NCBI RefSeq assembly: GCF_964355755.1
Contig: NC_092671.1
Coordinates: forward strand, 1,364,001 to 1,428,000
Direction of reading: 5' to 3'
DNA length: 64,000 nt
DNA from: Antedon mediterranea
Taxonomy: Eukaryota; Animalia; Echinodermata
Shown: positions 4,460 to 27,600 of the stretch, one piece after another
Position numbering within the stretch: the first letter of the stretch is position 1
How the letters are laid out: each line of letters opens with the position of its first letter
The notes under the pieces: generated by a model
What the model was told of the DNA's origin: nothing
What the model saw: the letters and a program-made list of their open reading frames with translations, nothing else
The model's database searches: none
Program-made: the position numbers and the translations under genes

Positions 4460-4469
4460 CACTGTTCCT
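4460..4469. repeat. Left target-site duplication (CACTGTTCCT)
   Basis: Identical to 21960-21969; extending by one base on either side breaks identity. Confidence 0.92.
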
Positions 4470-4679
4470 CGGTCAGTCTAATTACCGAAAACAACCGAAA
4501 ACAACCGAAAACAACCGAAAACAACCATAAACAACTGAAAACAACCATAAACAACCGAAAACAAACCGAAAACAAAATAACAATATCTAAATACCGAAAA
4601 CAAATTTGATGCAGCTACTATATTGACCTCGCACGCCAAACAAATTTCTACAGTATATTTTTTAAATGTCGCCCTCTAT
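4470..4679 (+). repeat. Left TIR with subterminal 10-bp tandem array (ACCGAAAACA)n
   Basis: About 9 copies of ACCGAAAACA or variants. Inner parts (ATCTAAATACCGAAAACAAATTT, ATGTCGCCCTCTAT) also have inverted counterparts at the right end. Confidence 0.9.
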
Positions 4680-5299
4680 TGATAGGTGTTTCTAAAGCCA
4701 ACAAGACCGCGCGCGCAAAGCCAAGGAGATAGAGACCATACGAAATGGAAGTGTGCACAAAATTTAACTCAATATCGTACAAACTCAATGATAACACCGT
4801 GCATTTACTTACAGAATCTACAATATGTTAGATATTTAATATATATGTTACATGAATCTTACGGAGACAAGGAATTGTCTGTAGTCGTAAGACCCTTTGA
4901 AAAATAAAACATTATCATAGAAAAAAACATGAAATAAGGTTTTAAAGATACAAGTTGGAAAGTTAAAGTATTCCTACATATAATATAAAAGAAACTACAT
5001 AATAGTAGCCTAACACTAACACGCACCACGCATAATATATAAGCATTTTAATATATAAGCATTTTTAAATACTGTAATTCGATATAATCACTTCTAAAAT
5101 ATTTTTTAGTATTTTATAACAATTTTAACAACTAGGGATGGTTCTCGAATACATAGTATAATTTCAGCGATTTCAAATGTACTTACCGCATGACAATAAT
5201 ACACCACTTCTACGACGTTTATTTGTGTATATTGTGTTTATATGTAAAACAGTTTGTGAAAAACACCTCTATTCGGTGCAAATCGTAAATTAGCAGGTC

Positions 5300-5490
5300 T
5301 GAAAATAATACTAAAAAGTGGTCAAAAATTGGGACCGTAGTCCGGATTGCCTCCAAATGTAATGGAGTGGTCCTTGGCCACATATTTCTTGCAATAACTT
5401 TTTTGAGTAATTCTGCTAACAAACAGACAGACAATCAAATAAACAGACACACGCGATCGATTAGAGATACCTCCTTGGCGGAGGTAAATA
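5300..5490 (-). mobile_element. Truncated DINE-1/Helentron-associated (HINE-like) non-autonomous element
   Basis: Minus strand starts TTATTTACCTCCGCCAAGGAGGTA (T-rich end, 7-bp hairpin at 5468-5486), followed by a GTCTGTCTGTTTG microsatellite. This is the typical DINE-1-like 5' layout; no 3' end found. Confidence 0.6.
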
Positions 5491-5614
5491 ATAAATAACT
5501 TTTAAACCAATCAATTAATTGTGATAGAAGTATTGTGGTATTTGACTGACTTTGACAAATCAAGAAAGACGCCAATAAAAAAATCCCTTTTATGTAATGC
5601 TGAAGTAATTTTAT

Positions 5615-5733
5615 TTCTATCTACCCAATTAATAAAGAAAAGCCAGTAATGCCAAATTCATTCTGCATACGACTGATCAGGATGTCGTGATCTATCGTAT
5701 CAAAAGGATAAAAAAAAAACTGCCAAAACTAGC
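5615..5733 (-). pseudogene. LINE (CR1/L2-like) reverse transcriptase fragment, copy 1
   Basis: Near-identical to 7676-7789; minus strand encodes an FDTIDHDILISRMQNEFGITG-like RT motif. Confidence 0.7.
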
Positions 5734-5993
5734 ATAATATATCACCCTTTATCATGTTTCATCAACATAATATATCACTTTTAACGCGATAGAGCAGTTT
5801 CCGTACTATGAGATTTATTATATTATTTATACCGACTGATATGTTTCATAAAGTAGACAGGAAATGGTTAGATACTGAATAATCTTACCTAACGTATGAA
5901 GGTTAGAAACTGGGCGAAAATCTGAGTTTAATGTTGATTTGGTCGGGAACCTAAACCAATAATTTCGCAAATCAACATTAGTAGACATTCGTA

Positions 5994-6296
5994 GGGAGTG
6001 AGTGGCCGAGCGGTTACGACAGTGGAACAGTAATTACGTAGCCATAACATCGGCAGGGGTTCGAGGCTCACTCACTCCGTGGTTCTGGTGGTTAGAACGA
6101 GTCTTCTCGGATAAGGACTATAAACCGTAGGTCCAGTGTACACATCTCGCTCGTGTGCACTTTAAAGAACCTAGTACGAGACGAGTAGGGGGTTACCCCG
6201 GTGTATTAGTACATTACAGCCACTGATCACCAACTGGGTCCTCTGGGAGACCAGTCTTTGACTGAAGAGGTTACCCAGTATAAATATAAATTCAAT
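5994..6296 (+). mobile_element. tRNA-derived SINE with Deu/Nin-type central domain
   Basis: A box TGGCCGAGCGG, B box GGTTCGAGGC, acceptor-like stem GGAGTGA/TCACTCC, then CTCGGATAAGGACTATAAACCGTAGGTCC..GCACTTTAAAGAACC and a short AT-rich tail. A decayed relative lies at ~57400-57498. Confidence 0.8.
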
Positions 6297-6679
6297 CGAT
6301 TCTGTGTTTTAAAACTTTTATTTTTATTTAAAATGTATTAGGATAAAAATGGGCAAAACGGATATATTGCTACATTTAAAAATGGAGGTCAAATACACAG
6401 TACAAATATTTTGTATATAGCCCGATTTAAACAAATGACAGGAGAAAAACATAATATCTATTTGGGTATTTATTTCTAACTATACGTTGATTTGTTTACA
6501 AACTTTTACGATTGCATGTTCATTAAATTCGTCATAACCATGCCAGGTTACTTTCCAGAGGTGAATGACGATATAATATTTTTACATTAAATGCATTGGC
6601 GATATTGTTGTTACCCATATTTTATGTACATCAAGGATTATGTGTTGCGCTGTATTATACATTTTTTTTTACTTTGATG

Positions 6680-6681
<2 letters not shown>

Positions 6682-6749
<68 letters not shown>
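6682..6749. repeat. (TA)n microsatellite
   Basis: About 34 perfect TA units. Confidence 0.98.
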
Positions 6750-6750
<1 letters not shown>

Positions 6751-6826
6751 TGAGGACTAGTTGTGTTCCAACCGTACCACGCCGAGAATGTTAAAGGGTC
6801 GTTATCCAATCGAGTTAAAGAACAAT

Positions 6827-6909
6827 ACCATGAAATGGTCTAATGGTTAGAGGGCAACTGCATATCAAGCAGACGGTCCGAGTTCGAGTCTCGGTTGGGT
6901 CGACTTTTT
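6827..6909 (+). other. tRNA-like Pol III unit (pseudo-tRNA) inside a repeat adjoining (TA)n
   Basis: A box TGGTCTAATGG, anticodon-like arm CTGC-ATATCAA-GCAG, perfect T arm CCGAG-TTCGAGT-CTCGG and TTTTT at 6905-6909; the acceptor stem pairs poorly. Confidence 0.6.
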
Positions 6910-7302
6910 CTCATTCTCACAGATTTCCTCATCTTTATCATTTCAAAAATTAATTAAATAATTTTCAGTGTATCACCGGGCGGTTTGGAATTTATTTCTA
7001 TGCCTGTTGTGTTTTTATATTTATACAATTGTATTGCGAAGCACTGTGTAAATTATATATAAATAAATACTGTCAAATTACAGTGCTCATCGGAACATGA
7101 TCTCATAAACGCGTCATTGGCGAAAGTTCCGTATTTTTTAGTTGTATGAAAAAATGTCTCTGGCGGGATTCGAACCTGTATATACGTTTCATACAAAAAT
7201 TGTAATTAATCACGGCAAACAATTCTACGTAGTTCCTCGGAAATCTGTCTTAAGGCCATAACTGACAGGCCTATGCAACTCATCGAATTAATTTACTAAC
7301 TT

Positions 7303-7620
7303 ATTTTACAGAATTGATGCCGTCAAGAACTTGGCTGGGATGATGCAATACCTCGCACCATCCAATCCGAATGGAATATTGGTTAGATGAACTTAGAAGG
7401 CATGAAATATGTTACAAACTACAACACAAAAAGTATGCGAGAGCGAATTACACCCTTTTTTAGATGCTATAATTAAGGGCCAGCGTTTCTGTAGTTGATG
7501 ACACTAACTATCGATGAGGCAGCACCCATAGATAGTAATGAAAATAAGTCAGTCTGAGATTTTCAACATGGGAGAACCTCTGGAAAACTATAGCTTGGGT
7601 ACCAGGTCCTGAAATACAAG
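7303..7620 (+). pseudogene. Degenerate BEL/Pao LTR-retrotransposon pol relic
   Basis: Plus-strand translations across stops and frameshifts give ILQ..CRQELGWDDAIP..QSEW..WLDEL, ELHPFLDA (cf. ELHxFSDAS) and RFSTWENLWKTIAWV (cf. RFSSWxRLxRVTAWV), in the expected order but with large deletions. Confidence 0.72.
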
Positions 7621-7675
7621 GCTCGACTGAGACAAATATTAAAACTACCAAGGAAGAAGAATGGATCCATCAATA

Positions 7676-7789
7676 TTCTATCTACCCAATTTAAAGAAAA
7701 GCCAGTAATGCCAAATTCCTTCTGCATACGACTGATCAGGATGTCGTGATCTATCGTATCAAAAGGATAAATAACCTGCAAAAACTAGC
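7676..7789 (-). pseudogene. LINE (CR1/L2-like) reverse transcriptase fragment, copy 2
   Basis: ORF 7563-7781 contains FDTIDHDILISRMQKEFGITGFSLNW, matching the non-LTR RT motif (A)FDTxDHxILxxxL..GIxG..LxW. Confidence 0.75.
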
Positions 7790-8358
7790 GTTAACAAAAT
7801 TATTGAACCAGTATGAATATGATGTTTCAAAAGAGCACGTCATGAAGACCACAACATTTGAGAAATGTCTATTCCCACAATCAAATGCAATCACACACGT
7901 ATAAAGCATGCTGTGTATTTCAGTTTCTTATAGATACGGTATCAGTAACTTGAACTAGTATATTATGGAGATACTCTGTGGAGATCGATAGTTCTATCAA
8001 CTATGGTTGTTCATTTATTTGGTGCTCTTTAAGTATAGAATAGATAAAGATAAGCTAAAGCTTCACTGTTTAAAAACACAGACGATTTATTGTTGACACT
8101 TGAGAATTTGTATAAGTTATTCATAAATCTAATTTTTTTACGAAAAAAAAACCTAATTTCACAACTAATTTTAGTGAATTTTCATATATTTATATTTAAT
8201 CTCTATCGAACGGTGGGGCAGGGAATAGGCCTAATGGAGGAGGTAGGAGGGTGGGGATGAGCTATATTATAATGATGTAGGCATATGTATAATACCATTA
8301 AAATATACAATAGACACATTATAATGTCAACAACCTTATAATAAAACAAATACTAATG

Positions 8359-9391
8359 GAGAAAAACTCGAAAACAGAGACCCCCACTAAAACGTCTCAT
8401 TATATTGGGGGTCTCTTTTTTTGAGATTTCCCGAGACCCCCTAATATAATCCCTGTTTATTGAGAGTGTTGCAAATACCCACCAACGAGCTTGGTCATAA
8501 ATTATTAAAACCCAACTTTTATCGCAAAAACCGTGAATTTATGTTTATTTATTTATCAATTTATTTTTATTTTTTTAATTCATTTCTTTTTAAAGGTTCG
8601 CCCAACACAATATATTTGTCTTCATCCTCCAGTCTGCCTCAAAGTCTGACCTCATATCATTTTGTTATTGCATTGTACGTTATTATCTTTTATGCTTGTT
8701 AATAAAGGTTACGAAACTAGTGTCAGTTTTTGAAATAATCTCCCGCTTTTTAGCTTCTAACATGCATTTATACATCTTACTTAACTTCTAGGACGTCGAC
8801 CTTGTATTCCAAAATGACAGTCTCTTCACACGCGTTCAAGAATTCATCAATCTTCTTATCGTTGCGGCATGTTCTTTGATATCGGCATATCAGTTACCGT
8901 TTATTACTGATACGTCATTCTGTGATTTTGAGACGTTTTAGTGGGGACCCCCTATATAACGTAATATTGACCTAATATTGAGACGTTTTAGTGGGGGTCT
9001 CTGTTTTCGAGTTTTTCTCGAAAACAGAGACCCCTATATAACGTAATATTGACTTAATATTGAAACGTTTTAGTGGAGGTCTCTGTTTTCTAGAAAAACT
9101 CGAAAACTGAGACCCCCTATATAACGTAATATTGACTTAATATTAAGAAGTTTTAATGGGGGTATCTGTTTTCGAGTTTTTCTGGAAAACAGAGACCCCC
9201 TATGTAACGTAATATTGACTTAATATTGAGACGTTTTAATGGGGGTATCTGTTTTCGAGTTTTTCTGGAAAACAGAGACCCCCTATATAACGTATTATTT
9301 AGACGTTTTAGTGGGGGTCTCTGTTTTCCAGATTTTCTCGAAAACAGAGACCCTGGGTCTCGGGTCTCTGGTCTCTGTTTTTGAGACACCC
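8359..9391. mobile_element. Nested foldback-type DNA element remnant with 82-83 bp hairpin-containing tandem repeats
   Basis: 8359-8399 is the exact reverse complement of 8979-9019. The array at 8929-9354 has units with a 19-bp stem GGGGGTCTCTGTTTTCGAG/CTCGAAAACAGAGACCCCC. The right end GGTCTCTGTTTTTGAGACACCC looks like a TIR terminus; the left terminus is missing. Confidence 0.65.
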
Positions 9392-9679
9392 GTTTCGACC
9401 TATCTCTTAGTCTCTGGTCTCTGTGTTCGAAGAACCTTAGTAATTTTATCAAGATCATACAAAGGAGTTCCTTACATGTTTATTCTTGACGGTAACCTAT
9501 TTTGCAATATGTCAGTGGAATAACTGGCATTTTATCGGAGTCGGACGGTTTTGTCAAAATAGTGTTTGATATGGCGATAGCACCGGTTCCGTGTGCGGTT
9601 ATTATCAAAGCAGCCTGTTGGTTTCCGATTTCTTAAAGATGGTCCCAAATATGAGAGCAGCTTTGGCAAAATGTGCATT

Positions 9680-9941
9680 GCGATTGGTCTAGAACTTTGA
9701 CGGTGTTAGGCTTCAGAAAATAAGCCAATAAAAAAGACCTTCATGCAACTATGTAAAAAGCGTGGTTCTGCTGAAGTTTCTTTCCACTATTTAAAGCGAT
9801 AAAAAAACACATCATACCTTTATTCTTGAATTCTCACTGGAGAAAATCCATCTAAATCTTTATTTTTGTACAGTTCAGTTCAGTTGTACAACAGTTCAGT
9901 CTATTTTTACTTAACCGTTCGGTTCTGACGAGCACACAGTG
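9680..9941 (+). promoter_or_regulatory. Candidate promoter and non-coding first exon of the transposon gene
   Basis: ATTGG (~9683) and CCAAT (~9725) boxes, repeated Inr-like TCAGT at ~9870-9901, and a consensus donor GTG|GTAAGT at 9942 that could join the acceptor at 10845. Confidence 0.45.
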
Positions 9942-10848
9942 GTAAGTCATTCATAATTATTTACAGTTCATTTTTTAATAGTTAATCATTATTCAGTGTA
10001 TAAAGAATGCTTTAATTTAAATATCTACAACGGTATTCAAGTTATTTATTTGTGCGAATCGCAATTTTTCGCGTATACGCATTCGCAGTTTAATTTTTAC
10101 CCAAAAATCATCAAACTAATCATTTTGACTAATAATGATATAAAGAATTGAAAAACAATAAAGCCTAAGTTAAGCAATTTGATTTGTGTACTTGTTTTTT
10201 TTCTTTTTCTCTTTTGTGGCGCAAACACCACTTTTATTCACATTCATATTATCTCATATTACATAAAATCGTATTATTTAACTTGTAAATGTCGTTACAG
10301 TTCATAAGTAACATTTTTACATATATGAATTCTGTATTACTCCTTTTTTCATTAATTTTCTTATATTTTGTTATACACTTGACAGGATCATCATTATCAT
10401 CTATCCCGTTTTAAAATAGTTCACACATTTTCATTTGTTTGTTTTCATTTTACAACCCGGATTATACAATATATTTATATACATGATAAAAATAAACAAT
10501 AATAGCTCAGTACCACCAGTAACCCGTATCACTGTAATTCTTTTTCTGTTAATCGTATCAAATTAGAAATTATATTATCATAATCTTATTTCTTAAAGCT
10601 ACCCATTTTTCTATACTTTTTTCTTTATTGTTATATGTTTCACATTCAATGTTATATAACATATTGCTTTTAAATGAATTCCATAAAGATTTACCGACTG
10701 GCTTATTTAGTGCAGATAACATTTTTATTCTATAAATAGTAAATGCTGCAAAAGTGTAAATATAATCTGATAAATATAATGTGTACTTGCTAATGATAGG
10801 ACCTTACAATTGCTTTCAAACCAATTGTTCTTATTTTACTTTCAGAAT

Positions 10849-11854
10849 ATGTACAGACAAAAAAGGCAGCACAAAAAAACTAGACCTTGTTTAACTTGTT
10901 TTGATTGTGACAAGAAAAAAACGGGGAAATACTTTTGTGGTGTTTGTAAGTTTGCGTGCAACAATGACAGTATATTTTGTGATTATTGCTTACGCTGGTT
11001 CCACATATTGTGCGAAAACTTAACTAAAGCAAACTTGCATAGCTTAGGTAACTCTCCTTTGCATTTCACTTGTTCCGAATGCTGTAGCCCTAATGGCAGT
11101 TTTGATTTTTTGGCCTCATTAGAGCGTATTGATTCAGCTACCAAAAACAATTACAATATACTTGACATAGCGCAAAGTGAACGTTTATTTCTACGTAATC
11201 ATCGCTTTAGTAAACCCCCGTTTACGATATCTCAACAGTATGTCATCGATGCTGTTTCTACAAGTATAATGAACAAATGTGGAGGTGGGCGTTTAATCCC
11301 TGTATCTGTCGCTGGTGACGGTAGCTGCTTGTTTAATGCCGTAGCTGTTGCTTTGACTGGCAATGAAAACATTGCTACTGAACTTCGCGTAAGAACATTT
11401 GTTGATATGGTAGAAAAAGAAACATTCTACAAGGAACTGCACAAACATTCAAAAATTGCTTTAACCAGTCCTGATTACAATCTCGCTTGTTCAGATTGTA
11501 GTCGTGAAAGCGGTTATTCTTCAGCTTGGCAGATACAGGCGTTGTCTAGTGTTATAGGGCAAGAAATTATTTCTGTGTATCCTCCTTATAATGGCGTTAC
11601 TGACAATGCACATCGCATATTGAATAGAAGTTTTTATCCTTGCGAAGAAACAGCTGACAGACATCCGATTTTTATTATGTGGACTAGTACACTATTACCT
11701 TCTTCAAAGGGTACGTGGATTCCTAACCACTTTGTCCCGTTATTGGACAGTTCTTTAATAGATGAGAGAGTGTGTTTACCCGAAATATTGTCATCTTGCT
11801 TGTCATCTACTTCGTATGACGACATTGGTCACAAGAAAGTAATCAAAAGGAAAG
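10849..11854 (+). CDS. First coding exon: PHD finger plus vertnin-type OTU cysteine protease/deubiquitinase domain
   Basis: PHD C4HC3 pattern CGVC..CDYC..WFHILC..CSEC (~10936-11082). OTU motifs VAGDGSCLFNAV (Asp 11317, Cys 11326), ELRVRT, YSSAWQIQALSSVIG..I.SVYP, IFIMWT, WIPNHFVPL (His 11728), resembling VRTN-family OTU domains. Acceptor TTTCAG at 10845 precedes the ATG; donor AAG|GTAAAT at 11855. Confidence 0.88.
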
Positions 11855-14800
11855 GTAAATTAGGCCTACTCTACTAATTTAGACAAATGGTTTCTTATTT
11901 ATTTGTACAAATTTAAAAAAAATAAAATTTTAGGATAAGAATACACAAAACTTATCCGTACGTAGTGTACGCAATAGATTGGTTCATTGTTATTTTTTAT
12001 TGTAACGAAGTTATCTCAGAGGTGTGTTTATATTATTGACCGAGATAAATCTAAATTTTTATAGTTCAAAAAAAGAAAAGGCGACCGAAAATGAAAGAAC
12101 GAATCGCAACTATAGTACCCATATCATCTGATTCCGTTGACTCAACACCACAGGTTGATCCTACAGACTTTCCCTCCACTTCTGTTGATAGACAACCTTT
12201 CCATAAACGGGATATGATTTCCCTATCTCCACTGTCCACGCCCAACAGCGACAACGTACCCATGTCGATGACAACGCCCGACTTGAAAACCACAACAGAT
12301 ACGCAACATGCAAGAGGTAGTGTTTTGTTCTGTTATTTTTTTTTTAACAAAGACATGTTTTATTTAATAAGTGTAGGCGTCTATAGAAAACTGAGATATC
12401 TGATTGTATCTACATCAAATACAATTGTGTGTTTGTACTTATCGATATGAATCTACATTTTTATAGTGCGAAAAAAGAAAACAAGGCGACCGAAGAAGAA
12501 GCAACGAATCGCAACCACAGTAACCATATCATCTGATTCCGTTGACTCAACACTTGATCCTACAGACGTTCCCTCCACTTCTGTTGATAGACAACCTTTC
12601 CATAAACGTGATATGATTTCCATATCTCCACTCTCCACATCAAACAGCGACAACGGCAAAAAGACAGACACAAATGCCACGATGGCTAATTTAGAGGGCT
12701 ATCCAGCTACCTCTTTTTTTAACCAATCTTCCAATATAGATTCTGATCTGATTTCATTATCACACCCATTTTCTGACCCCAACAAGAACAGCAATGATCA
12801 TGCAGACACCAATGAAAAGTTACTACCTAATCATAATGATGTATTGCATATGCCTATAACAGGAAAGCCTTCCGATAGTGTGATTTTCCAATCCCCAATT
12901 TGTAACCCCCACAGCGAAATCATAAAGGAAAAAAGCACCATAAAAACTATGCAACATGAAGGTAAGTGTTTTGTTCGTTTTGATCTTCGCATTACAAGAT
13001 CTGTGTTAGAAAACACAAATTTTAGATATATCTAAGTTTTCTAGATCTAAAAAACTCAGATATTTGAGTTTCCTAGAATTATGAAATTTAAATAACAAGA
13101 TCCGAGTTTCAATCTTCAAATATAAAAATCAAATCACATAATACAGTAAATCGTGTCATTATTAATAAGAGGGTAGTGTTTAAAATACACCTATCATTGT
13201 AAGTACTGTTATTTGCAATATAGTACTGCGGTCAACCTGCATAAAATGCGCCTAAAATGTATAACATGATATAGAACACTGTTCAATGTCTGATTGTTTA
13301 TCATGTATGTTATTTACCTTTAAAAGGCAAAAGAAAAGCTCCCAGCAATAGCCTGAAAATATAGGGGAATACATTTGTAGTTATGTATTGCATTATGGTT
13401 TGACAAATATTTTATATATTTTCAAAAAGGAAAACAGCAGAGGCGACACACTGTATTTTTCAAGATTGAAGATGTCGGTGATAATTCACCATTTATATTT
13501 TCTTCGTCCGAGTCTGAAGTTGATCCTACAGACTTTCCCTCCAATTCTGTTGATACACAACCTTTCCATAAACGGGATATGATTTCCATATCTCCACTGT
13601 CCACACCCAACAGCGACAACGTACCCATGTCGATGACAACGCCCGACTTGAAAACCACAAAAGATACGCAACATGCAGGAGGTAGTGTTTTGTTCTGTTT
13701 TTTTTTTTGTAAAAAATAAATGTTTTATTCAATAAGTGTAGGTGTCTATAGGAAACTGAGATATCTGATTGTATCTAGATCAAATAACATTGTGTGTTTG
13801 TACTTATCGATATGAATCTACATTTTTATAGTACGAAAAAAGAAAACAAGGCGACCGAAGAAGAAGCAACGAATCGCAACCATAGCAACCATATCGTCTG
13901 ATTCCGTTGACTCAACACCACAGGTTGATCCTACAGACTTTCCCTCCACTTCTGTTGATAGACAACCTTTCCATAAACGTGATATGTTTTCCATATCTCC
14001 AATCTCCACACCAAACAGCGACAACGTACCCTTGTCGATGACAACGCCCGACTTGAAAACTACAACAGCTACGCAACATGCAGGAGGTAGTGTTTTGTTC
14101 TGTTTTTTTTTTTTTTAACAAAGACATGTTTTATTTAATAAGTGTAGGTGTCTATAGAAAACTGAGATATCTGATTGTATCTACATCAAATACAATTGTG
14201 TGTTTGTACTTATCGATATGAATCTACATTTTTATAGTGCGGAAAAAGAAAACAAGGCGACCGAAGAAGAAGCAACGAATCGCAACCACAGTAACCATAT
14301 CTTCTGATTCCGTTGACTCAACACTTGATCCTTCAGACTTTCTCTCCACTTCTGTTGATAGACAACCTTTCCATAAATGTGATGTGATTTCCATATCTCC
14401 ACTCTCCACATCAAACAGCGACAACGGCAAAAAGACAGACACTAATGCCACGATGGCTAATTTTGAGGGCATTCCAGCTACCTCTTTTTTTAACCAATCT
14501 TCCAATATAGATTTTGATCATCAATTTTCTGACCCCAACAACGACAGCAGTGATCATGCAGACACCAATGAAAAGTTACTACCTAATCGTAATGATGTAT
14601 TGCATATGCCTATAACAGGAAAGCCTTCTGATAGTGTGATTTTCCAATCCCCAATTTGTAACCCCCACAGCGAAATCATAAAGGAAAGAAGCACGTCGAT
14701 GACAACGCCCGACTTGAAAACCACAAAAACTATGCAACATGAAGGTAAGTGTTTTGTTCGTTTTGATCTTCGCATTACAAGAATAGATCTGTGTTAGAAA

Positions 14801-17800
14801 ACACAAATTTTAGATATATCTAAGTTTTCTAGATCTAAAAAACTCAGATATTTGAGTTTCCTATATTTATGAAATTTAAATAACAAGATCCGAGTTTCAA
14901 GCTTCAAATATAAAAATCAAATCACATAATACAGTAAGTCGTGTCATTGTTAATAAGAGGGTAGTGTTTAAAATACACCTATCATTGTAAGTACTCATTG
15001 TTATTTGCCAAAAATAGTACTGCGGTCAACCTGCATAAAATGCGGCTAAAATGTATATCATGATATAGAACACGATTCAATGTCTGATTGTTTATCATGT
15101 ATGTTATTTACCTTTAAAAAGCAAAGGAAAAGCTCCCAGCAATAGCCTGAAAATATAGGGGAATACATGTATAGTTATGCATTGCATTATGGTTTGACAA
15201 ATATTTTATATATTTTCAAAAAGGAAAACACCAGAGGCGACACACTGTATTTTTCAAGATTGAAGATGTCGGCGATAATTCACCATTTATATTTTCTTCG
15301 TCCGAGTCTGAAGTTGATCCTACAGACTTTCCCTCCACTTCTGTTGATACACAACCTTTCCATAAACGGGATATGATTTCCATATCTCCACTGTTCACAC
15401 CAAATAGCGACAACGTACCCATGTCGATGACAACGCCCGACTTAAAAACCACGAAAGTAACGAATCATGCAGGAGGTAGTGTTTTGATCTGTTGTTTTTT
15501 TTTTAACAAAGTAATGTTTTATTCAATAAGTGTAGGTGTCTATAGGAAACTGAGATATCTGAATGTATCTAGATCATATAACATTGTGTGTTTTTACTTA
15601 TCGATATGAATCTACATTTTATAGTGCGGAAAAAGAAAACAAGGCGACCGAAGAAGAAGCAACGAATCGCAACCATATCATCTGATTCCGTTGACTCAAC
15701 ACCACAGGTTGATCCTACAGACGTTCCCTCCACTTCTGTTGATAGACAACCTTTCCATAAACGTGATATGATTTCCATATCTCCACGCTCCACACCAAAC
15801 AGCGACAACAGCAAAAAGACAGACACAAATGCCACGATGGCTAATTTTAAGGGCATTCCAGCTACCTCTTTTTTTAGCCAATCTTCCGATATAGATTTTG
15901 ATTTGATTTCATTATCACATCAATTTTCTGACTCCAACAACGACAGCAGTGATCATACAGACACCAATGAAAAGTTACTACCTAATCGTAATGATGTATT
16001 GCATACGCCTATAACAGGAAGGCCTTCCGGCGATAGTGTGATTTTCCAATCCCCAATTTGTAACCCCCACAGCGAAATCATAAAGGAAAAAAGCACGTCG
16101 ATGACAACGCCCGACTCGAAAACCACAAAAACTATGCAACATGAAAGTAAGTGTTTTGTTCGTTTTGATCTTCGCATTACAAGATCTGTGTTAGAAAACA
16201 CAAGTTTTAAATATATCTAAGTTTCCTAGATCTAAAAAACTCAGATATTTGAGTTTCTTAAATTTATGATATTTCAATAACAAGATTCGAGTTTCATTAT
16301 TCAAATAGAAAACTCAAATCACCAAATACAGTAAATCGTGTCATTATTAATAAGAGGGTAGTGTTTAAAATACACCTATCATTGTAAGTACTGTTATTTG
16401 CAATAGTACTGCGGTCAACCTGCATAAAATGCGGATAAAATGTATCATGATATAGAACACGATTCAATGTCTGATTGTTTATCATGTACTGTATGTTATT
16501 TACCGTTAAAAAGCAAAAGAAAAGCTCCCAGCAATAGCATGAAAATATAGGGGAATACATTTGTAAGTTATGTATTGCTTTATGGTTTGACAAATATTTA
16601 TATATTTTTAAAAAGGAAAAAAACAGAGGGGACACACTGCATTTGTCAAGATTGAAGACGTCGGCGATAATTCACCAATTATATTTTCTTCGTCCGAGTC
16701 TGAAGTTGCTCTAAGTAATTCCGAAACACGATACAGTCACATAAACAATTCATTTAGTTCTGATCTGGAAAAGCAAGGTTCGTTATTTAATTTACACAAC
16801 CTAATTGAAACACTATATTAATAAAATCTACATTATCTTTGTGTGACACAATATTCGAAAACAAAATTCATTATCATTTCCAATATGCAATTAAAATTAA
16901 AATAATTCTGTTTATTTTTGTGGGAAATTGTGACGGCTGATATCTTTTATTTTCCAAATAAAACTATCTTTAGATGTATCGACTACGTTTTAGCGTGTTC
17001 TTAAGGTACAATTACATGTTACTAATATACTAATATTCTATTGTGAAAATATTACATATAAAATAGAAAATGCATGCATCATACATTTGCTCAAAAGTAA
17101 CTATTGAAATAAAGTTTATAAACAGTGCCCGCAAAAAAGGAAACATGCCTATTACTGTTATTAAATATTTTGAAATTTTCAATATGCTTCGTTTTAGGTG
17201 ACCGAATGTCGTGCAAAAGGTTCACAAAGCGGTTGTTAAACAAAAAATTTGTTCAGGTGTCTGAACTATACCAAATCCTCATGAAAACATCAGAAAATGC
17301 AACATTCCCAGACATTCCGCAGGGTGTTAAAGAAAATATGTTATTTGTTGTCAACAATGAAGGCAATGTACAACAACGTTTTGGAGGTGGTCGTAGCTTC
17401 TTTCCTGATGATTGTGGTGTATGGGACTCGTCAAGTAGTAGTACTCCGAAGACACAGTTCACAAGAGTAGCTGGAAGGCTTATCACCATTGTCTTTAAGT
17501 GTGATAGATTTTGCATTAAAAAAAACGGTACTTGGGTCCCGCTCGTACCACAACCGACTAATATTATAACTTTGCATAGGTGTTATTGTAAATTAAAACG
17601 AGACAAAGGGTACAAAAAACGAGTGTCGTGGATAGAAAACGAAAACGAAAAAATGAACAACTTCAATAGGCCTAAAGCAGTAGTTGAATACATTGGCAAT
17701 TTTCCTTTTACCATTTCGTCACATGGTAATGACAGACATACACACACAGAATACGTACGTACTCATCCGAAAGTTCTACGTGATGCTGAATGTAGACTTG

Positions 17801-19077
17801 TCCATTCCAAACCCAGGGATACTTACGCAGATATGGTTTTTTCTAACCCCGAAAGCGCACCCAGAGATATGAAACAACTGAGAAATTTGAAATATAACCG
17901 ATCAAAAAAACTCACCACAGGTAGTAGGTCTAATGTTGCCGATGATATACAAAATTTAATAACCGAATTAACAAAACATGAATTTGTAAAAAAAGTCTTT
18001 GCTGTACCTAATCAGCCTCCTTGTGTAATTCTGTACACAAACAATCAAATTAATGACTTACGAAGGTTTTGTTGTGGCAATATTTCTCAAAGTATACTAG
18101 GGATCGATAGGACTTTTAACTTGGGGGCTTGCTATTTAACGGTTACTGTTTTTAAAAACACTCTATTGCTTAAAAAAGAAGCAAATGATCATCCCATTTT
18201 TGTCGGCCCGATGCTATTACACTGGGATGGTCGGTACAGCACGTATCTTGATTTCTTTACACATTTGCGTTGTCAGCTTGACAGTGACATAAACAATTCC
18301 GAAGTTGGTATGAGTTGTAATATGGTCATAGGTTCCGACGAAGAAAAGGCAATTTTGAAAGCTTTAAACTTTTCTTTCCCCAATTCGCGACACATATTGT
18401 GCACAAGGCATATCAAGCAAAATGCATCTCGTTACTTGCTTGAAAAGCAAGGAGCAAATAATAAGTACCGACAAATAATACTAAACAAAATCTTTTCGCC
18501 GTCCGGATTACTTGGGAGTACAAACATTTCACAATTTGACAAACGTTCACTACAATTGGAAATAGATTTCCAAAAACAAGTTCCACTATTTGGAAATTAT
18601 TTTAGAGATAAACTGTGCCCAACCTTAAAAGAAAAGGTTTTCAGACCCAATATTACCGACCGAGTGATTCCGGACCGTTGGACAAACAACAACTGCGAAA
18701 GCATAAATCACATTCTAAAACTATCCATTAACTGGAAACCACAAAGGCTTCCAGATTTAGTACAAATTCTACACAAAATTGCGAAATTACAATATGCAGA
18801 CGCCCGGCGTGCAATTCACGGACAAGGCAATTTTTACGTTATCCCTAGATTAAAGAAATATACAGTGCCAAATTCGGTTTGGATAGGGAAATCTGAAGAT
18901 GAAAAAAACAAATATGTTTTACGATTTTTGAAAATATCACTGAACAAAACAGTTGCAAAAACAACAACATCTAAAGACGGGAAATTAATTATTCCTGCAA
19001 CACCACAATGTGCTAAAAAACCAGGACAAAAAAAAAGAACCAGAGTTGCAAAAACCACATCATTCAGTAAGAAATAA
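10849..19077 (+). CDS. Predicted 10-coding-exon fusion protein (~1860 aa): PHD finger - OTU (vertnin-like) protease - low-complexity repeat linker - MULE DDE transposase
   Basis: Manual splicing: 10849-11854, 12065-12316, 12467-12961, 13430-13681, 13832-14086, 14238-14744, 15224-15475, 15625-16146, 16616-16777, 17198-19077 (5583 nt). Every intron is GT..AG and phase 1, and every internal exon is a multiple of 3 and stop-free in the joined frame. Four donors are the weaker GTAGTG and three acceptors end AAAAAG, so exon usage needs RNA support. Confidence 0.75.
12065..16777 (+). repeat. Tandemly duplicated exon-intron cassettes encoding a Ser/Thr/Pro/Asp-rich linker with basic heads
   Basis: Exon order X,Y,Z,X,Y,Z,Y,Z' (252, 495, 252, 255, 507, 252, 522, 162 nt) with duplicated introns (four of 149-151 nt, three of 468-479 nt). 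Shared core DPTDFPSTSVDRQPFHKRDMISISPLST; heads RKKKTRRPKKKQR or GKQQRRHTVFFKIED. Confidence 0.9.
17198..19077 (+). CDS. Terminal exon: MULE/Mutator-family DDE transposase
   Basis: Uninterrupted frame. Motifs LGIDRTFNLG (D at 18106), IGSDEEKA (D at 18337), ILCTRH (CxxH, 18400-18411) and WTNNNCESINH (E at 18697); N-terminal DDCGVW..VVEYIG..SHGN..YVRT putative DNA-binding region; basic C-terminal tail. Acceptor TTTTAG at 17197 is in frame for phase 1. Confidence 0.92.
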
Positions 19078-21619
19078 GAGTTGTATCAAGACTTGAAAGA
19101 ATTAATGGTGAAGATTTTACTTAGGCTATTTTATATTCACACTTATTTGAAACTCATAATCTACAATAATTACACTCTTTTTATAATAATATTGTTTTGT
19201 ATATGTTTTTAACTTAATATCATTTATATTAAATCAGTATATACTTGTATAATACAAAGATTTGAATGTGAAAAAAATAGTACCGTATTTATTCGAATAA
19301 ATTGAATAAATGCAACCCAACCCCTCTAATTAGGGCGACAATTACACAAACTAATTTTTACTCTATTTAACACGTCGTGATGTAATTGTATTGTAGTTTT
19401 CATATTGAAGAGGTTCCGAGATATCTATTGAACCATTTTACACCAAAAAAAAAAATAAAAAGTGCATTAAGCTTATTCAATCGGTTTCCCTAAATTTTGT
19501 CGAAGAACCCCATTATCCACGCCATCAATGTGTCAAAAGCTAGTAATTTGATTAAATGTTCTCAGTTGTGTTTTATGTCGCACATTTAATAATTCCACAT
19601 CTCGTACGTTTTACTATTACTTTAACAATGAAACGTTTATTATTAAAGGTAGGCCTACCTTAGTTTCTCGTGTTATTAATTCTGTTTGCACTTATTAAAT
19701 CTATCTTTTTATATTAATTATTGTTAAAGTTAAGTCGCATTTTAAATATACTTATGTATTTACTCCAGTATTTGTCACAGTGTTAAATTTTTATTATTTA
19801 ATAACGCATTTACTAGATAGCATTTACAGATTATTATTGCAATTTTAAATATGTTTATATTGGTTTGTACATGGAGGTCCTCCATGGTTTGTATAACACT
19901 ACTTCCTAAAAACATACGTTCTCTGTCTAACAATTTTTAAAAGCAATGCAATCGTATCCGATTTAGATTGACAACTTAGCAGTTGTAAATATTCAGTTTT
20001 GCAATTAGCATTAAGTTATAAAATTTCTTTTTTCTTTTAAACTTTTGTTCGATAATTTGTATTTTTTCTCCACATAGAATATAAATCACTTTGCCTTCAA
20101 CAAACATGTGTATTAAGTTTGTTCTTTTTCAAAAAAAAATTCACAAATTGATATTTTATTGAGTTTCAACCTATACCTAAAAAAACATTAGATTTCAGTA
20201 TGTTTTGTGTGTTTTTTTTTACAAATTAAATTTAGGTAGATGTTGATAATACATTTGATATCTTGAATCAAGTTTGTATACCTCAAAAACATTATATTTA
20301 ATGCCTTTCCTCTGGTCAAGAGACGAGATAAGCCCTTGACCAATGTTAGGACCAATCAAGGTGCTTTAAACAGTCCTGGCTTTGTTTGTATCAAACCTGT
20401 TAGTGGCGGTAATTATCGCTGTTGGTTTTTATTTTAATAAAATAAAAAATAAAAAAATAAAAAAGGAATTATGTTACAGATTTTCAGTTGTGTTCTCATG
20501 TATTATTTAAAACATGAAAAATGTTATTTATTTACTACACTATGTTATTTAAATTTAGTTTGTTGTAGTTAAACAAACATGGCTAGATGTTGATAATACA
20601 TCTGATATCTTGAATCGAGTTTGTACCTCGAAACAAAATGAAATTTAGTACTAAAAAGATGTTACAGACTTGAGTTGTGTTCTCATGTTCTCTCAATATG
20701 ATTAGGCCTAAGGTTAATAAAGATTTACAAGTTAATGAAACATGTTTGTGTTTTCACTTCCTGTCATCATTTTTGTCAGACTATTATATATATATATATA
20801 TTTCAACGGAGAAAAACATTCATTAACTCATTAATCAGGGGAAACAACATTACGTTTAATTGTTAAACAACTTAATCAAAATTAAGCTGTCGCTGCAAAA
20901 GACTTAAAATGAATCCTCTCTAAAACGCACACTGCTGGAATTAAGAATTTAACTTATTTAATAAATGTTTATATATTTTTCTTTTTTATTTTAACCTTGA
21001 TTTTAATTTGTATTACAATACTTGTCTAGTCTAGTGGTGAATTGGGCATTACACCAGAAGGCTAGCTATACTCTTTCTTTCAAATTGATTTTTTAATGAA
21101 ACAAGTACTTTGAACAAATTCATGCGTGAGCACATAGGCATCATTTTCTCTCTATTTGCATTCAAATAAATTACAGTTATTCGTTTAGTGAACAAATAAA
21201 TTCAAGAATCAACATTAAAATAACGTCAAATGATATGAGTTATGAGGTTCCATTTTTCATGAATTTTACGCGCGAGAGTACCCATTTCCGGCCATCTAGC
21301 TAGGGGTGTCATGGGAGTAAATTAGCTTCGTCACAGGCCCCACCATGGTTCCAATACTTCTTATCATTTTATCAGAACTAAACTTACCCACCCACCCACA
21401 ATGATCATCTCAGGCATTACAAATTTCTTAGTAGGCCTTCTAGCTGTTATATGGCCACCGAATAACAAAGTTTAATAAATAATAGACTATTTAATTAATT
21501 TTCAGTGGATTATTTGTTGGGTACTTGGGGGTATAGGCCTACTATAAAACAAAAAAACACCTCTGACGTATTTAGCTTTGCTTTTTGCTTCTCAGTTTGA
21601 AATGAACATGTCATAGGGG

Positions 21620-21689
21620 AAAACTTTACCTTTGCTCCCCCCCCCCCCCCCCCACATCTCCCTATTTCAAAATCCTGGATCCGCCCCTG
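21620..21689. mobile_element. hAT-like MITE end fragment
   Basis: Poly-C run followed by AAATCCTGGATCCGCCCCTG, a common hAT MITE terminus; no partner end seen. Confidence 0.45.
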
Positions 21690-21780
21690 ATTTTGGTGCC
21701 GAATACTCGTCAGATCCTGACAACCAAACCAAGGCTCACGTGTAATAACGCAGTGCTATCTACTTCAATATATCATTAAT

Positions 21781-21959
21781 ATAGAGGGCGACATAACAAA
21801 AAATTTGTTTTCGGTAATTAGATTTGTTTTAGTTTGTTTTCGGTTTGTTTTCGGTTGTTTAGGGTTGTTTCCGGTTGTTTTCGGTTGTTTTCGGTTATTT
21901 TCGGTTGTTTTCGGTTGTTTTCGGTTGTTTTCGGTTGTTTTCGGTAATTAGACTGACCC
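21781..21959 (-). repeat. Right TIR with (TGTTTTCGGT)n array
   Basis: Reverse complement of the left TIR with a somewhat larger number of 10-bp units; begins ATAGAGGGCGACAT. Confidence 0.9.
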
Positions 21960-21969
21960 CACTGTTCCT
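21960..21969. repeat. Right target-site duplication (CACTGTTCCT)
   Basis: Identical to 4460-4469. Confidence 0.92.
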
Positions 21970-24616
21970 TTACATTTCATCTGAAGGAGGCAGCATAAGA
22001 AATAGAGCAGTTCTAAAAAAATACAAATAATACAACACAAAAAGCTCAAAGTATAAACTGAGATATCAGAATTACTATTTTTTATATGCTGATCATACGT
22101 TGCGTAGGTCTTATTCCAAAATTATCATCTATGTCAAATAGTCAACTCAGCACGACAATAAACTAGATCTTAAAGTATGGACTAATATAAAGAATGCCTG
22201 CAGTTGTACAAAGCATTGCAATAGATACAGGCTGCTATGGTAGTATTACACCTTACAGATGAGGATGTTGCTCGTATTTAATTAATTTAAATGAAAATTA
22301 AAGCGATCGATTCAACTGTATTGTGTAAATGAGGCTCACATAAGGTAAATCACAGGTGTATTGAAAAGATGAGTAGAACTATTATAAAGATGAAATCTTA
22401 ATCTAAATCGTTTCCAGTTGATGGATTTAGAGCAGTTCTGTTTGTGGGTAATCACTTTATTCTTTATAATTTTATACTATAATATCAGAATCCCAGTATT
22501 AATTAACTTACATGTACATAACTTATGAAACCTATGTTCAAAATTAATTCTACCGGTATTATTATACTGTATATGACCCATATAATCCCATCTCCTAATT
22601 TAGGCCAAATTCATACACATAGTAGTTTTAGTTTAATCCAAATACAATTCCACCCACTAATTTTTGCCAAATTTTGGTAAGCAGGCCCCTTGAAACTATA
22701 CTTGGTTGTTTACGGTAATTATTGCAGATATAACATAGAAACATCAGTGGGTAAAATCTCTTACTACTGCTAATGTACACCAATTTACTACTGAATTGTA
22801 TTACTGTAGGCCTACTAATACAGTACTACAGTATGTATCCTGAAACAAACCCCATTTGAAGACAACATATCAAATAAATTGAATTTAGATAGTTGATTAC
22901 AAATGAAAAATTTGGAGAGATATTGCGAGAATTAAATAACTTCCAGTGGTGTTTGTCCATGCCCTGCTGGTCGAACACCTTCTTGCCCTCGGGGGCTGAT
23001 CAGACGCGCTATTGGCCACTCGTATAAACCTTAAATGACCTGTACACATGTTGTGAAACTTACACGTCTTCACTTTATTGTTATGTTTATTCATGTAAAA
23101 ATTACTTTAAAATTGTTTTTTTGCTGCTACTTTTATGAACATTTTTTTTAAATAAAATATATTAATTTTTATAAATTTAATAATTTACTGTACTGCATTT
23201 TGTCAATTGTAGTCTAACAAAATGCATTAGAATGCCATCATTATGTAATTGAAACCCAAAATGTGTATCTAGGCCTACTAGTATCCTTTTAAGCACTTTA
23301 TGTATGTGAAAATGATACATAAAAAACTCAACTTACAGCCTAAAACGTTTAGTATTTATCGTCTTAGGCTAATCAAAATAAAATCAACAAAATTACTCAC
23401 ATGTACACATCAAATAAGCTACAAATAAACATTTGTAATTTATAAAAACATAATGTATGTTTATGAAGCTCAAAATATAATCCTACCTCGACTGTATGTT
23501 CTTAGCAAACTCCACAAACATGCAAAATATTATCTCTTTGGTAATAGATGCAATAAACTATCCAATAACAAGTGTAGAATGTCAGAACCTAAGAGCAGTA
23601 TAATAGTACAAGTTGCTATGTATCTGTTTTCAGGTAGTAGTCAGCACACATTAAACAAACATGCTGTAAGCAATGTTATTGATTAACCAGCCTGTAATAT
23701 AGTTTACAGAGAAACTGACCAGTAATAATACCTAACCAAACGCTGACCACGACAGACCGTCACTAACGGAATCAACTTTCAAATACTCAGTGGTGATTCG
23801 TCATGGAAACAACCAGCAAGTGTCTCACAACCGTTAATATGATGCTAGTAAACATAACGAGTGTCGGCTTCGAACGCAGCATCCCTCGGAAGACGTCATG
23901 TTAAATCTGTCCTCCTGCTGTGACCCCTGATGGTACATCGTAAAGTGTACCTTTCCGTCGATGCCACAAGAGCTCGGATAGGTCATGATCGAAGGACGTA
24001 ACCCGAGCCGATCGCAGACAGGGATCGTTGATCTATTTGCGGTTCAGGTAACCTTACCTGAATATGCGGCAATCATCCTTGTAAAGAGAATCGTGCCATG
24101 CTGCCTAAGCCCTCTAGGTATACTACCAGCTAATTACAACTTGGTATGGGGTTGCAACGTTAAACAAATTACAACAGGTTCATGTTTTTTTAAGGTTTCT
24201 TTTTCTTCAAATCAATTTTTAGACAGCAATTAATTCTAAAAACGGGGATGTTTTCATTATTCATTAAGAATAGATGAACCAAACAGCTTGAAGTTGCTTG
24301 GTTTGGTGAGCGCGTGAGAGGAAAAAAAATCACTTTCACTTTATAAAAACAAACAACTTACATGAACATTACCAAATACAACATCTTAAACAGGTGTACC
24401 TTAAGGAGAAATTGAGATAATGTGAAAAACGTGAAACTATGTCAGTCTGTTGCGAAGGCAGGTGGAACATATCTGGGATTTAGGATGAGTTTACTGAAAC
24501 CTATAGCTTACTTGTTGAATGAAGTATCTAGCATGCTGGTGATATTTGATGCAAGCCCATAGCTATAGTTTTTATAGGAGAATTTTTTTGTACGACAAAA
24601 GGGATACAACCATTAT

Positions 24617-24678
24617 TGTCATTGGATTCGAACCAACAATCTATAGTCCAGCATCTAACACACTGTGCCACACGTCCT
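24617..24678 (-). mobile_element. Decayed tRNA-derived SINE head
   Basis: Minus strand GGACGTGTGGCACAGTGTGTTAGATGCTGGAC..GGTTCGAATCC (A and B boxes). Confidence 0.55.
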
Positions 24679-27600
24679 AAATAATGTATAGTAGACAATC
24701 ATATTCATCCTCCAATGTTTTTAGAAATAAAGAATAAACTAAAACTTATTGGCACAATGTCAAGAAACTTTCTTCATCATACATATCATAAGGAATATCA
24801 AAATAATAAACATCAAGCAGTTATTGGATTATTACATCATGCTAACCTTCCAGAAATGCAGTCATATTTCTATTATATAATTGGATTATCTTATGGTGTC
24901 AACTTACATCTTATGGTAATATAATATTTACCACAAATAATAGAAAATTTATTACGAGTACGAACTTAATCTTCATGTATACTTGCGAAATTTGGGGAAA
25001 AGGTTCAAATCAAAAAAATTCAAGTAAATTAAACTCCTCATTGGCTCTGGATAAGTTGTTTTGAAAATAAAGGGAGCATATAGAAACCTACTGCTTGTCT
25101 TGATCTTACATCAGAAACATAATGTTTAATTTAACATCAATATCCTTTTATGGTTAAATCTACCAAATATAACTTCAAAAACGTAAGTAAGAAAATGTAT
25201 GAAACAACATTACCAGTATTATTTACTTAATATTTACTCTTCCCTTCAATGAACATTCAAGAAGGAAAACTTATACAGAACAATAATATATTAGACTGAC
25301 CTTAGAAATGTGGCAGGGATGTTGAATTATTAAGGCCTATTGAACAGATGTACAGTGTTGGCCTAAATATGAACACCACCTCTCTACAAATGAATTACTT
25401 TAAACCATCTGCGGCAGAGGAGTTGATGAATGGACATAGTTTCTGAGTTAATAATATCACTGATGACATCATCAGTAGACAGCAACTCATCTAGCTAGCT
25501 ATCTCTTTGAGCATCGATCTGGCTTCTTGCCAACAGAGGCCAGGTTAAATTTACTTTCATATTACATACAAATGATTTTTTTTTTATAATTTCATGAATG
25601 AAATGTATTGTCTACATCAGACATAATACAAATTGCTTTAATATCATTTTGTCTGAACACTTAAAAACTATAATATATATTATATAATTTCAAAGAATTA
25701 ATAGCTTTTTTGATATTCTAGTTGTGTTTACATGGTAGGAAGAAATTCACATTATTATCAATCCAAAATTAATTGCATATAATTTATTTTATATCATATC
25801 TTGTAGCAATATATAATAAATTAATATTCAAACAAAACGAAAGTAAATGGATCAAATGACCAAAAAATAATTGAATGAACCAAATAAAAAAGATTTAAAT
25901 GGAAAAAAGCATAGTTAACACAATAACAAACCATATCTGACCTATACAAAAAATGACAGAAACATTATGTCAGACAAGACGTCAAGAATTAATGATCTAA
26001 TTATCTAACATTATAAAATGATAAGTATAAATTTCGATATACTGCCCTCTATCTGTAAATATGCTCTGCAGCAAAAATAATTCATGCCATTATACCAATT
26101 TAACATTAGTAGATGTACTTAATACTACAGTAATGAAAGTAGTATAATAAGAGTCGAGTAGTCTTGTTTACCTGTGTAACTGTAAGGTTTTAATCAACTA
26201 ATTGTGAGCAATACAATATATAGGCTTAACTATCATGAACAACGATGTTTACAGAATCACCCTCGAGTATGGGTGGCAAACATGTCTGTTAGTACAATAC
26301 TCACAACATCCCTCATCCGCACACCTGAAATCACCTCTTACAAAAAACTGCAGTAATTCTATTGTTTAATAAACAGTAGTAGCTCTACATTGATTATGAT
26401 TTATATTTTTCAACTTTAATCCTATATGTTCTAAAGTTATTTTTTAGAAAGACTTTATTAGTACATATTTTTACAAAGGCTAAATTAAAATCTTGTTGAT
26501 TAAAATATCCTATGCAAAGTTATATATCAGCCAAAAGTTATCCCTTAGGATTCCATGATGAATGTGTAATTAAACTTCTTTTTTTTAAATTAAACAAATC
26601 CAATGTCAAGGCCTTCCCTTTTCTCAAAGCAATTTGTTGCTTCTGGTCCCGTAGGAATAAGTCTATGAACTTAAGTGTGCTATGTGTGTGCTATAAACAT
26701 ATAATAAGTACATTGTACCTTCACTACTAAGTTTGTGATTCATTGAAAATCTTTTTATAAATCTTGAAACACAATAAACTTAACAGTCCTTTAGACCTAT
26801 CAAAAAAGATGGAAACCTAACATGTTTCTTTCCCACATATCCTTAACATTGAGGATGACATATTGGTTTGATCCCAAACAGGGCAGGATACTTAGTTTAT
26901 TAAGACCAAGGCAAACCTTTTCTATAAAACAGATTAACTACTGGTTCCTCAGCCAAATTTAAGTTAGTCATTACGTTAGGAAATATCAATTTACATAAAT
27001 ATTACATTTATTGAAATAAATAAAATTTTAATGTTAAATTGAAATAAAAACTAACTTAGTTCCTAGTATAGCATCTTCAATTATTCATAAATCATAAGTA
27101 TTTTTTTTCTTCTTTTATTTTATTATAGTAAATTTAACTATAATTATTGAAAAATACATTTCAATAAAGAAGGAAAAACTACAAAACATTCTACAAAATT
27201 ATTTCTGAACCTAATGATTTGAACTATAGAGGGCAGTACAACAAAATAATCATTTACGCGTATTATACTGCACTTACTTTTTATAAATTTACAGAGGGCA
27301 GCATAATGTTATCTATGATGGCAAATACTCATACTCTTACTACAGTACATACAAACTTAAAAGTTCTACTAGGATACTAATAAAACACTCCCAAAAAATA
27401 AAAAGTCAAAGAAAAGGCGTGTCCCGTATTCATTTCTGAACGTAGGGTAATGACCTGTTAGGAGCTCATTTTAATAAGCCTCAGCATTATGTGGTAATGT
27501 TACAGTTGTTTTCCATGTTGCCTTGTCTTTCAACTAGGTAATCATTTACACCTGAGTGGACTGGGACTTGTTTTTATCCGGAATTGGAATAACTTTATAA

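Follow-up and report, generated by a model that had tools for sequence, protein, structure and literature searches.

A 17.5-kb foldback-ended Mutator transposon, likely recent and polymorphic, in a Neuron navigator intron of Antedon mediterranea

Described foldback Mutator elements and the ends of the Antedon element

Among described Mutator-like elements (MULEs), three systems offer the nearest comparisons to the element treated here, a 17,490-bp insertion at positions 4470-21959 of a 64-kb stretch of Antedon mediterranea DNA (contig NC_092671.1, positions 1,364,001 to 1,428,000; this whole stretch is called the window, and coordinates below refer to it). Muta1 of Aedes aegypti, a Phantom-group element with type-2 foldback ends, is 3.2 kb long, encodes 504 amino acids and has symmetric ends and an 8-9-bp target-site duplication (TSD); its autonomous copies are few and identical, its short derivatives numerous (PMC5499845, PMC5225508). 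Tm1 of root-knot nematodes, a Phantom-like foldback MULE, carries unlike 7-bp motifs at its two ends, a 9-bp TSD and a FLYWCH-type transposase, and its family is decaying (PMC3169594). Rehavkus combines a PHD finger with a MULE-related transposase, terminal inverted repeats (TIRs) of 26-400 bp, a 9-bp TSD and a minisatellite that precedes the 3' TIR (PMC6446971). We consider it highly probable that the Antedon element is a foldback-ended Mutator transposon lying antisense in an intron of a Neuron navigator (NAV) gene, that its insertion is likely recent and polymorphic, and that it belongs to a small, near-identical and probably autonomous family.

The element is flanked by a perfect 10-bp TSD, CACTGTTCCT, whose copies at 4460-4469 and 21960-21969 are the only two on either strand of the 64 kb. 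The outermost base is C at both 4470 and 21959, and it is followed by 56 bases that are perfect inverted complements. The left TIR (4470-4680, plus orientation) consists of the terminal C, a 14-bp end motif, some nine copies (9.1) of a 10-bp tandem unit and an inner motif at 4666, while the right TIR (21770-21959, minus orientation), read inward, starts with G and contains about twelve such units (12.1) and the same inner motif at 21782, which marks the inner limit of similarity between the two ends. With gaps allowed, the inverted similarity extends over about 200 bp (155 matches in 171 aligned columns). The TIRs, about 190-210 bp each, are of the foldback type described for Muta1 (PMC5499845) and fall among the long TIRs (>100 bp) of MULEs. 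As tandem units make up 42 of the 56 complementary bases and the ends diverge past base 57, TIR identity provides no molecular clock. An earlier reading made from the sequence alone (hereafter the sequence-only reading) had recorded both the perfect TSD and the 56-bp terminal identity; both observations stand, but the latter is poor evidence of age here.

The element shows every MULE mark that was looked for, namely a DDE core, catalytic residues with CxxH and W, long TIRs and a TSD within the 8-11-bp range given for MULEs (PMC6446971). It shares with Muta1 a short end motif followed by subterminal tandem units in a TIR of 145-200 bp, a right end that begins with GGGTC like the Muta1 motif, and a DDE core with W; it differs in its length of 17.5 kb, its predicted protein of 1,860 amino acids, its 10-bp TSD, its unlike terminal bases C and G, its PHD-OTU head and its lack of a FLYWCH match. 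The Phantom/Muta group, whose N-terminus is listed as none, FLYWCH or SWIM (PMC6446971), is thus matched in its foldback TIRs with tandem units and not in an N-terminal FLYWCH domain; a Pfam scan of the Antedon protein found neither FLYWCH nor SWIM at E<=1. Unlike terminal motifs are shared with Tm1, but the asymmetry here is of one base and the family is young. The PHD finger is shared with Rehavkus, whereas the 9-bp TSD and the minisatellite are absent from the Antedon element, the only repeat between its stop codon and 3' TIR being an A-rich 15-mer in two copies; the main text of the Rehavkus paper mentions OTU 0 times (PMC6446971).

The unusual size noted in the sequence-only reading is borne out by the literature compared. 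In a survey of 4,268 genomes, lengths of 1.9-10 kb were found for complete arthropod MULEs (PMC13359780), cargo-carrying MULEs seldom exceed 10 kb (PMC11162782), and families of 16-20 kb exist among CACTA elements (PMC6431247). At 17.5 kb the Antedon element exceeds in length the animal Mutator elements that the compared surveys cover; no size record is claimed, because the Phantom paper, Repbase and supplements may cover such elements. The plant element VANDAL20 is termed monstrous in the title of a cited work. In the literature searched, including a survey of DDE transposases (bioRxiv 2021.09.26.461848), neither an animal MULE with an N-terminal PHD-OTU head nor this element was found, though the same paper, database and supplements may describe them.

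The predicted transposase gene and its duplicated spacer

A ten-exon plus-strand gene model running from 10849 to 19077 comprises 5,583 bp and 1,860 codons with a single terminal stop, in agreement with the earlier statement that 5.6 kb of coding sequence bears no disabling lesion, provided that three AAG acceptors are used. All nine introns are GT..AG and in phase 1, so each internal exon could be skipped in frame. A model with nearer CAAG acceptors was rejected, since its frame is broken by 48 stops. A candidate first, non-coding exon with a GTAAGT donor at its end may lie at 9875-9941 on the plus strand, as a guess from sequence features. Introns account for 2,646 bp of the element, with 6,379 bp upstream of the ATG and 2,882 bp downstream of the stop, and further open reading frames of at least 100 amino acids are overlapping frames or minisatellite.

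The first coding exon (10849-11854) has Pfam matches to a PHD finger and an OTU protease, with Cys160 and His294 as catalytic residues, and the last exon (17198-19077) contains a Cys/His-containing N-terminal domain and the Mutator DDE core, in which D1538, D1615, C1636/H1639, W1729 and E1735 (model numbering) are recognized by alignment. Of 54 aligned sequences, a set that includes the window protein and was chosen by coverage out of 101 DDE relatives, 52-53 retain the residue at each of the D, D, E, CxxH and W columns, and a MULE match at E<=0.1 was obtained for 12/12 relatives scanned. The CxxH motif is a mark of MULE, hAT and P transposases. The predicted structure of the DDE part (pLDDT 88) finds as its best fold neighbour the transposase of ISCth4 (E 4.4e-7), which we take to be a member of the IS256 family, followed by the P-element and Hermes transposases; a sequence search of PDB with the DDE profile returned nothing under E 0.2. 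The core of the predicted head structure resembles the OTU domains of VCPIP1, DUBA, Cezanne and A20, whereas its PHD part is poorly modelled. The catalytic Cys and His of the OTU domain are kept in 13/13 rows, these having been picked for carrying OTU, and deubiquitinase activity is predicted for the domain.

Proteins with the same domain order are encoded in Pinctada, Branchiostoma and other marine invertebrates, with 28-48% identity in the DDE part, and DDE relatives occur also in Haliotis, Mytilus, Oratosquilla and Styela; OTU-MULE fusions are widespread in marine invertebrates, and the OTU-bearing group to which the element belongs is apparently little described. Two relatives (P0009, P0078) lie on contigs of 3-4 kb whose labels assign them to bacterial metagenome-assembled genomes; they probably represent animal DNA in bacterial bins. 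Ulp1-MULEs, OTU-MULEs of Medicago, Ginger1 and Helentrons likewise combine a ubiquitin- or SUMO-type cysteine protease with a transposase (PMC2836005, PMC1702500, PMC9741609). The protease is C-terminal in the Medicago MULE and in Ginger1, in contrast to the N-terminal PHD-OTU of this animal MULE; the MULEs of hydra, lancelet and plants carry an Ulp1-type protease, and the other carriers belong to another superfamily. One DDE relative (P0028) has an Ulp1 match (PF02902) in place of OTU, suggesting that proteases may have been swapped as in Ginger1. The Protein Atlas gave as its best score 0.82, for P0102, a result that serves as a lead only, and yielded no usable match with exon 1.

The occurrence of both parts in one protein also bears on whether the model joins two units, a PHD-OTU gene, possibly cargo captured in the manner of Pack-MULEs, and a separate DDE transposase starting from a Met near 17207. 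Such an arrangement would agree with the in-frame ATG near the start of the last exon and with the fact that the join between exon 1 and the DDE exon is predicted, but we regard it as improbable, as relatives hold both parts in one frame (P0102, of 969 amino acids, matches exon 1 with E 3e-47 and the DDE exon with E 1e-80), an OTU match is precomputed for 13/101 DDE relatives, and the intervening introns are all in phase 1. No captured host gene was found in the element, though no general search for one was made.

The distance from the OTU His to DDCG is 1,013 residues here versus 33-381 (median 174) in the 25 of 106 proteins in which it could be measured, although the search behind most of these relatives admitted lengths of 343-1,094 residues and single-frame calls are common among them, so that long intron-split spacers could not appear among them. 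The interval 12065-16777 (4.7 kb) consists of tandemly duplicated exon-plus-intron modules of 90-94% identity, arranged as eight symmetric phase-1 exons on the plus strand (12065-12316, 12467-12961, 13430-13681, 13832-14086, 14238-14744, 15224-15475, 15625-16146 and 16616-16777), and its predicted product is a spacer of about 900 amino acids rich in Ser, Thr and Asp. Exon copies diverge by 4-8%, intron copies by 1-9%, and the last, truncated exon by 13-14%. Insertions and deletions between module copies are multiples of three in 6/6 cases in exons and 0/10 in introns (Fisher p 1.2e-4), two of the ten intron gaps overlapping and possibly reflecting a single event. The reading frame has been kept and the residues hardly so, and the block is therefore likely to be translated and to work as a long flexible spacer under selection for frame. 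Two relatives (P0001, P0037) have short internal repeats in their spacers too, and duplication seems to have lengthened the spacer repeatedly within the OTU-MULE group.

Several of these results also carry a burden for an intact and translated transposase. The acceptors at 13430, 15224 and 16616 are AAG in the open model, whose splicing is predicted, while omission of the three exons behind them leaves the frame open too; a pairwise aligner counted 10/12 exon gaps as multiples of three, one 15-nt gap being split; pN/pS is 0.88-1.93 in the long spacer exons and 0.34-0.38 in the short ones, which hold few changes; and the Pfam MULE match (E 5.2e-6) reaches 27.3 bits against a cut-off of 27.6, 0.3 bit short. 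Muta5 showed no movement in yeast although it had looked just as active (PMC5225508). It is possible, though in our view rather doubtful, that the element is young and intact on paper and is now silent, with its enlarged gene not spliced to give a functional transposase or its 17.5 kb moved rarely in trans by a shorter member. The AAG acceptors, the Muta5 precedent and a reviewed fall in the efficacy of DNA transposition above 6 kb of cargo (PMC6431247) would fit such a state; frame-preserving exon gaps, which imply translation after the duplications, and the multiplication of long copies described below speak for a functional gene instead.

The size of the element is made up by the 4.7 kb of duplicated phase-1 exon-intron modules together with nested repeats in its 5' part. 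A very-high-copy repeat at approximately 5870-6290, delimited by depth and loose contig ends and SINE-like (resembling a short interspersed element) by inference, has a related piece at 57408-57498; on the plus strand, a (TA)34 run is followed by a tRNA-like high-copy repeat (6682-6950, tRNA-like at 6836-6904), presumably a SINE; and an 83-bp palindromic minisatellite (8946-9353), accompanied by a partial copy in inverted orientation at 8359-8429, resembles a miniature inverted-repeat transposable element (8359-9353). Rfam microRNA matches at 8981-9354 were discarded, being far under the gathering score and accounted for by the palindromic minisatellite. The nested repeats of the 5' part are flanked by a 119-bp direct repeat of 92% identity (5615-5733 and 7676-7789), the second copy of which overlaps a frame reminiscent of the reverse transcriptase of long interspersed elements; this possible remnant (7566-7784) has no Pfam match.

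Copies, inferred empty sites and the host gene

Eight public sequencing runs from three studies match parts of 16600-26500, of which X1, X4, X5 and X6 were compared and X2, X3, X7 and X8 were left out (share 0.09 for X7 and X8). Runs X1 and X4 come from one sample, X5 from another, and X6 from a second organism (organism B). The internal contigs are near-identical to the window, at 4,980/4,980 letters in four long contigs of X1, 6,015/6,015 letters in five of X4 and 2,787/2,788 letters in five of X5, and their depths exceed those of the flanks in X1 (110-151 vs 28) and X4 (943-1,205 vs 270-280) and reach 5.5-10.7 vs 3-7 in X5. Several-fold flank depth is observed at 7312-7749, 9352-10233, 10739-12148 and 16679-20370, that is, in parts across the element, and long copies have therefore multiplied. 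On a rough reading, a diploid genome may hold between a few and about ten long copies that are near-identical. The summed depth of the TIRs is 500-1,300 times that of the flank, a figure inflated by the tandem units, pointing to many short derivatives that share the TIR.

Contigs from the flanks suggest that the insertion is polymorphic. The left-flank contigs of X1, X4 and X5 fit through 4469 and continue with 20, 20 and 240 letters unlike the TIR; in a comparison of the whole locus, X1 and X4 contigs fit to 4459 with 30 letters over, and right-flank contigs begin at 21960; and an X5 contig, with the depth (5.9) of the left-flank contig, fits from 21960, its fit ending 60 letters before 22019. 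From these exit points we infer an empty site with a single target copy in two samples. Two contigs of organism B (depth 99 and 116) fit 4380-4462/4463 and do not enter the TIR, which would make the orthologous site empty there as well; in the same organism the DDE exon has almost no cover at 90% likeness, and diverged pieces of exon 1 are present. The sequence-only reading of a recent, possibly polymorphic insertion is supported, as is a multicopy family, and the insertion does not look like a solitary one fixed in relatives, since the flank of organism B does not continue into the TIR and near-identical copies are indicated.

The same data hold points that weaken this picture. Independent samples are reduced to X5 and X6, because X1-X4 may be the source of the window itself; contig depth is not copy number, and X1 (about 5x) and X4 (3.5-4x) disagree for the same sample; subterminal parts differ from majority contigs at 4/721 and 5/796 letters; the contig evidence refers, among the matches listed, to 15 of 171 joints and 24 of 105 loose ends; and the filled junction occurs in no contig among those matches, its support coming from the window together with the break of the contigs at 21960. 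The last point would be expected of an assembly artefact, and a relative from Pinctada (P0037) carries the automatic UniRef name Vertnin, as might suit a domesticated host gene, but either explanation is extremely improbable given the perfect TSD, the TIRs at both ends, the multicopy depth and the empty alleles; the single copy, fixation and loss of TIRs and TSD that characterize domesticated genes are not seen. The Vertnin name is a lead at the level of a label, and one paper on the subject mentions only an IS3/IS911-like helix-turn-helix. The empty alleles could also derive from precise excision of an older, once fixed insertion, as Muta1 excises precisely in about 90% of events with a TSD (PMC5225508); this is very unlikely, as the flank of organism B departs within the target 10-mer and does not enter the TIR, and the zero coding divergence from family contigs is unlike that of an old copy. 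The one joint with GT..AG borders among the matches listed (5336-5467) is present in X5, which is RNA by guess, but also in X1 and X4; since X5 covers introns and flanks as well, it says nothing on expression.

The C at both ends, recorded earlier as a feature of this copy, is confirmed as an observation and is no peculiarity of a single copy. Loose contig ends start from 4470 (C) in at least 7, 9, 3 and 10 contigs of X1, X4, X5 and X6, and from 4471 after a consensus G in at least 3, 5, 3 and 8, respectively; C-start and G-start ends are both common in two organisms and are a family trait. A contig of X1 and X4 carries 47 TIR-end bases (4470-4516), five letters and a new TIR start (C), and thus records an end that is nested or in tandem at another place in the genome. 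Counting against functional ends, a G-to-C change of the first base in Muta1 reduces binding and excision (PMC5499845). Both end types are nevertheless common, and the transposase therefore likely tolerates or uses the difference. A C at one end and a G at the other may be the family rule; Tm1 offers a precedent for ends that differ (PMC3169594).

The host gene was correctly placed by the sequence-only reading, with the element 3' of the NAV CH exons and on the opposite strand. Three minus-strand exons, at 55012-54962 (first coding exon of isoform X2, residues 1-17), 29372-29255 (CH domain, residues 18-56, with a match to CH of human NAV2) and 28183-28134 (residues 57-73), are identical at 73/73 residues to P0107, a NAV2-like protein of A. 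mediterranea found by a HMMER search with the exon at 29372-29255; a word-index search with the NAV exon gave no match. The exon at 55012-54962 belongs to isoform X2 only, and the start exon of the other five isoforms is not in the window. From P0107 residues 74-2513 there is no 8-residue word in the window for any of the six isoforms, the best motif score for a next NAV exon in the window is 28/68, and no CH match occurs in 91 minus-strand frames (>=28 amino acids) at or left of 28211, nor any match with the full protein. NAV does not end before the element; residues 74-2513 must lie left of the window, and the element thus stands antisense in a NAV intron that exceeds 28 kb, its distance from the upstream donor (GT at 28133) being about 6.2 kb. 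NAV-sense AATAAA signals number 38 in the 17.5-kb element and 17 in the 10.6-kb host intron, at near-equal densities, and the effect of the insertion on NAV is most likely small.

Elsewhere in the window, an 829-bp foldback element at 62009-62837 has 314-nt arms that are 96% complementary and contain 14-bp tandem units, with no TSD evident in 12 flanking bases. A repeat of about 110 nt has four dispersed copies in both orientations (41201-41316, 44928-45075, 53220-53323 and 61409-61487). Tandem arrays lie at 35092-35393 (71 bp), 37589-38202 (16 bp) and 46538-47370 (57 bp), the 71- and 16-bp units sharing a core, and a perfect 83-nt palindrome is found at 35470-35643.

Proposed mechanism and significance

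By analogy with mosquito Muta1, the DDE core would cleave the element at each end and link the ends to target DNA with a 10-bp stagger, and the subterminal 10-bp units may serve as multiple transposase binding sites. Short non-autonomous copies with the same TIR form a far larger family, which this transposase likely moves as well. The element grew as phase-1 exon-intron modules, situated behind the PHD-OTU head and ahead of the DDE core, were duplicated in tandem.

The PHD finger of the element may read chromatin. For the OTU domain we favour, at about even odds, the role of an active deubiquitinase shielding the transposase or its complex from ubiquitin-driven removal, in keeping with proposals of proteases as deubiquitinases for Ginger1 and Helitron (PMC2836005, PMC9741609). 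Deubiquitination could alternatively act on repair factors, and the main alternative role would be self-cleavage of a polyprotein, polyprotein processing having been considered as a protease role (PMC1702500). More tentatively, and as a whole rather unlikely, the element may be an active 17.5-kb MULE of an unnamed marine-invertebrate clade, with an N-terminal PHD and a working OTU, symmetric-exon shuffling that more than doubled its protein, a spacer possibly tuned by splicing, C and G ends, and a possible role of the clade as the source of vertnin.

The intronic polymorphism is ordinary in itself; only a demonstrated influence on the splicing or expression of NAV would make it more than that. 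To our knowledge few animal MULEs are active, and if the element is young and intact, its 17.5 kb constitute a natural test of the carrying capacity of a Mutator transposase. The spacer provides a clean, datable case of exon-module duplication with selection for frame only. According to a 2022 report, the OTU domains of transposons had not been tested for activity (PMC9741609); the OTU domain found here is intact, with a confidently folded core, and makes the old guess that transposons use the ubiquitin system testable.

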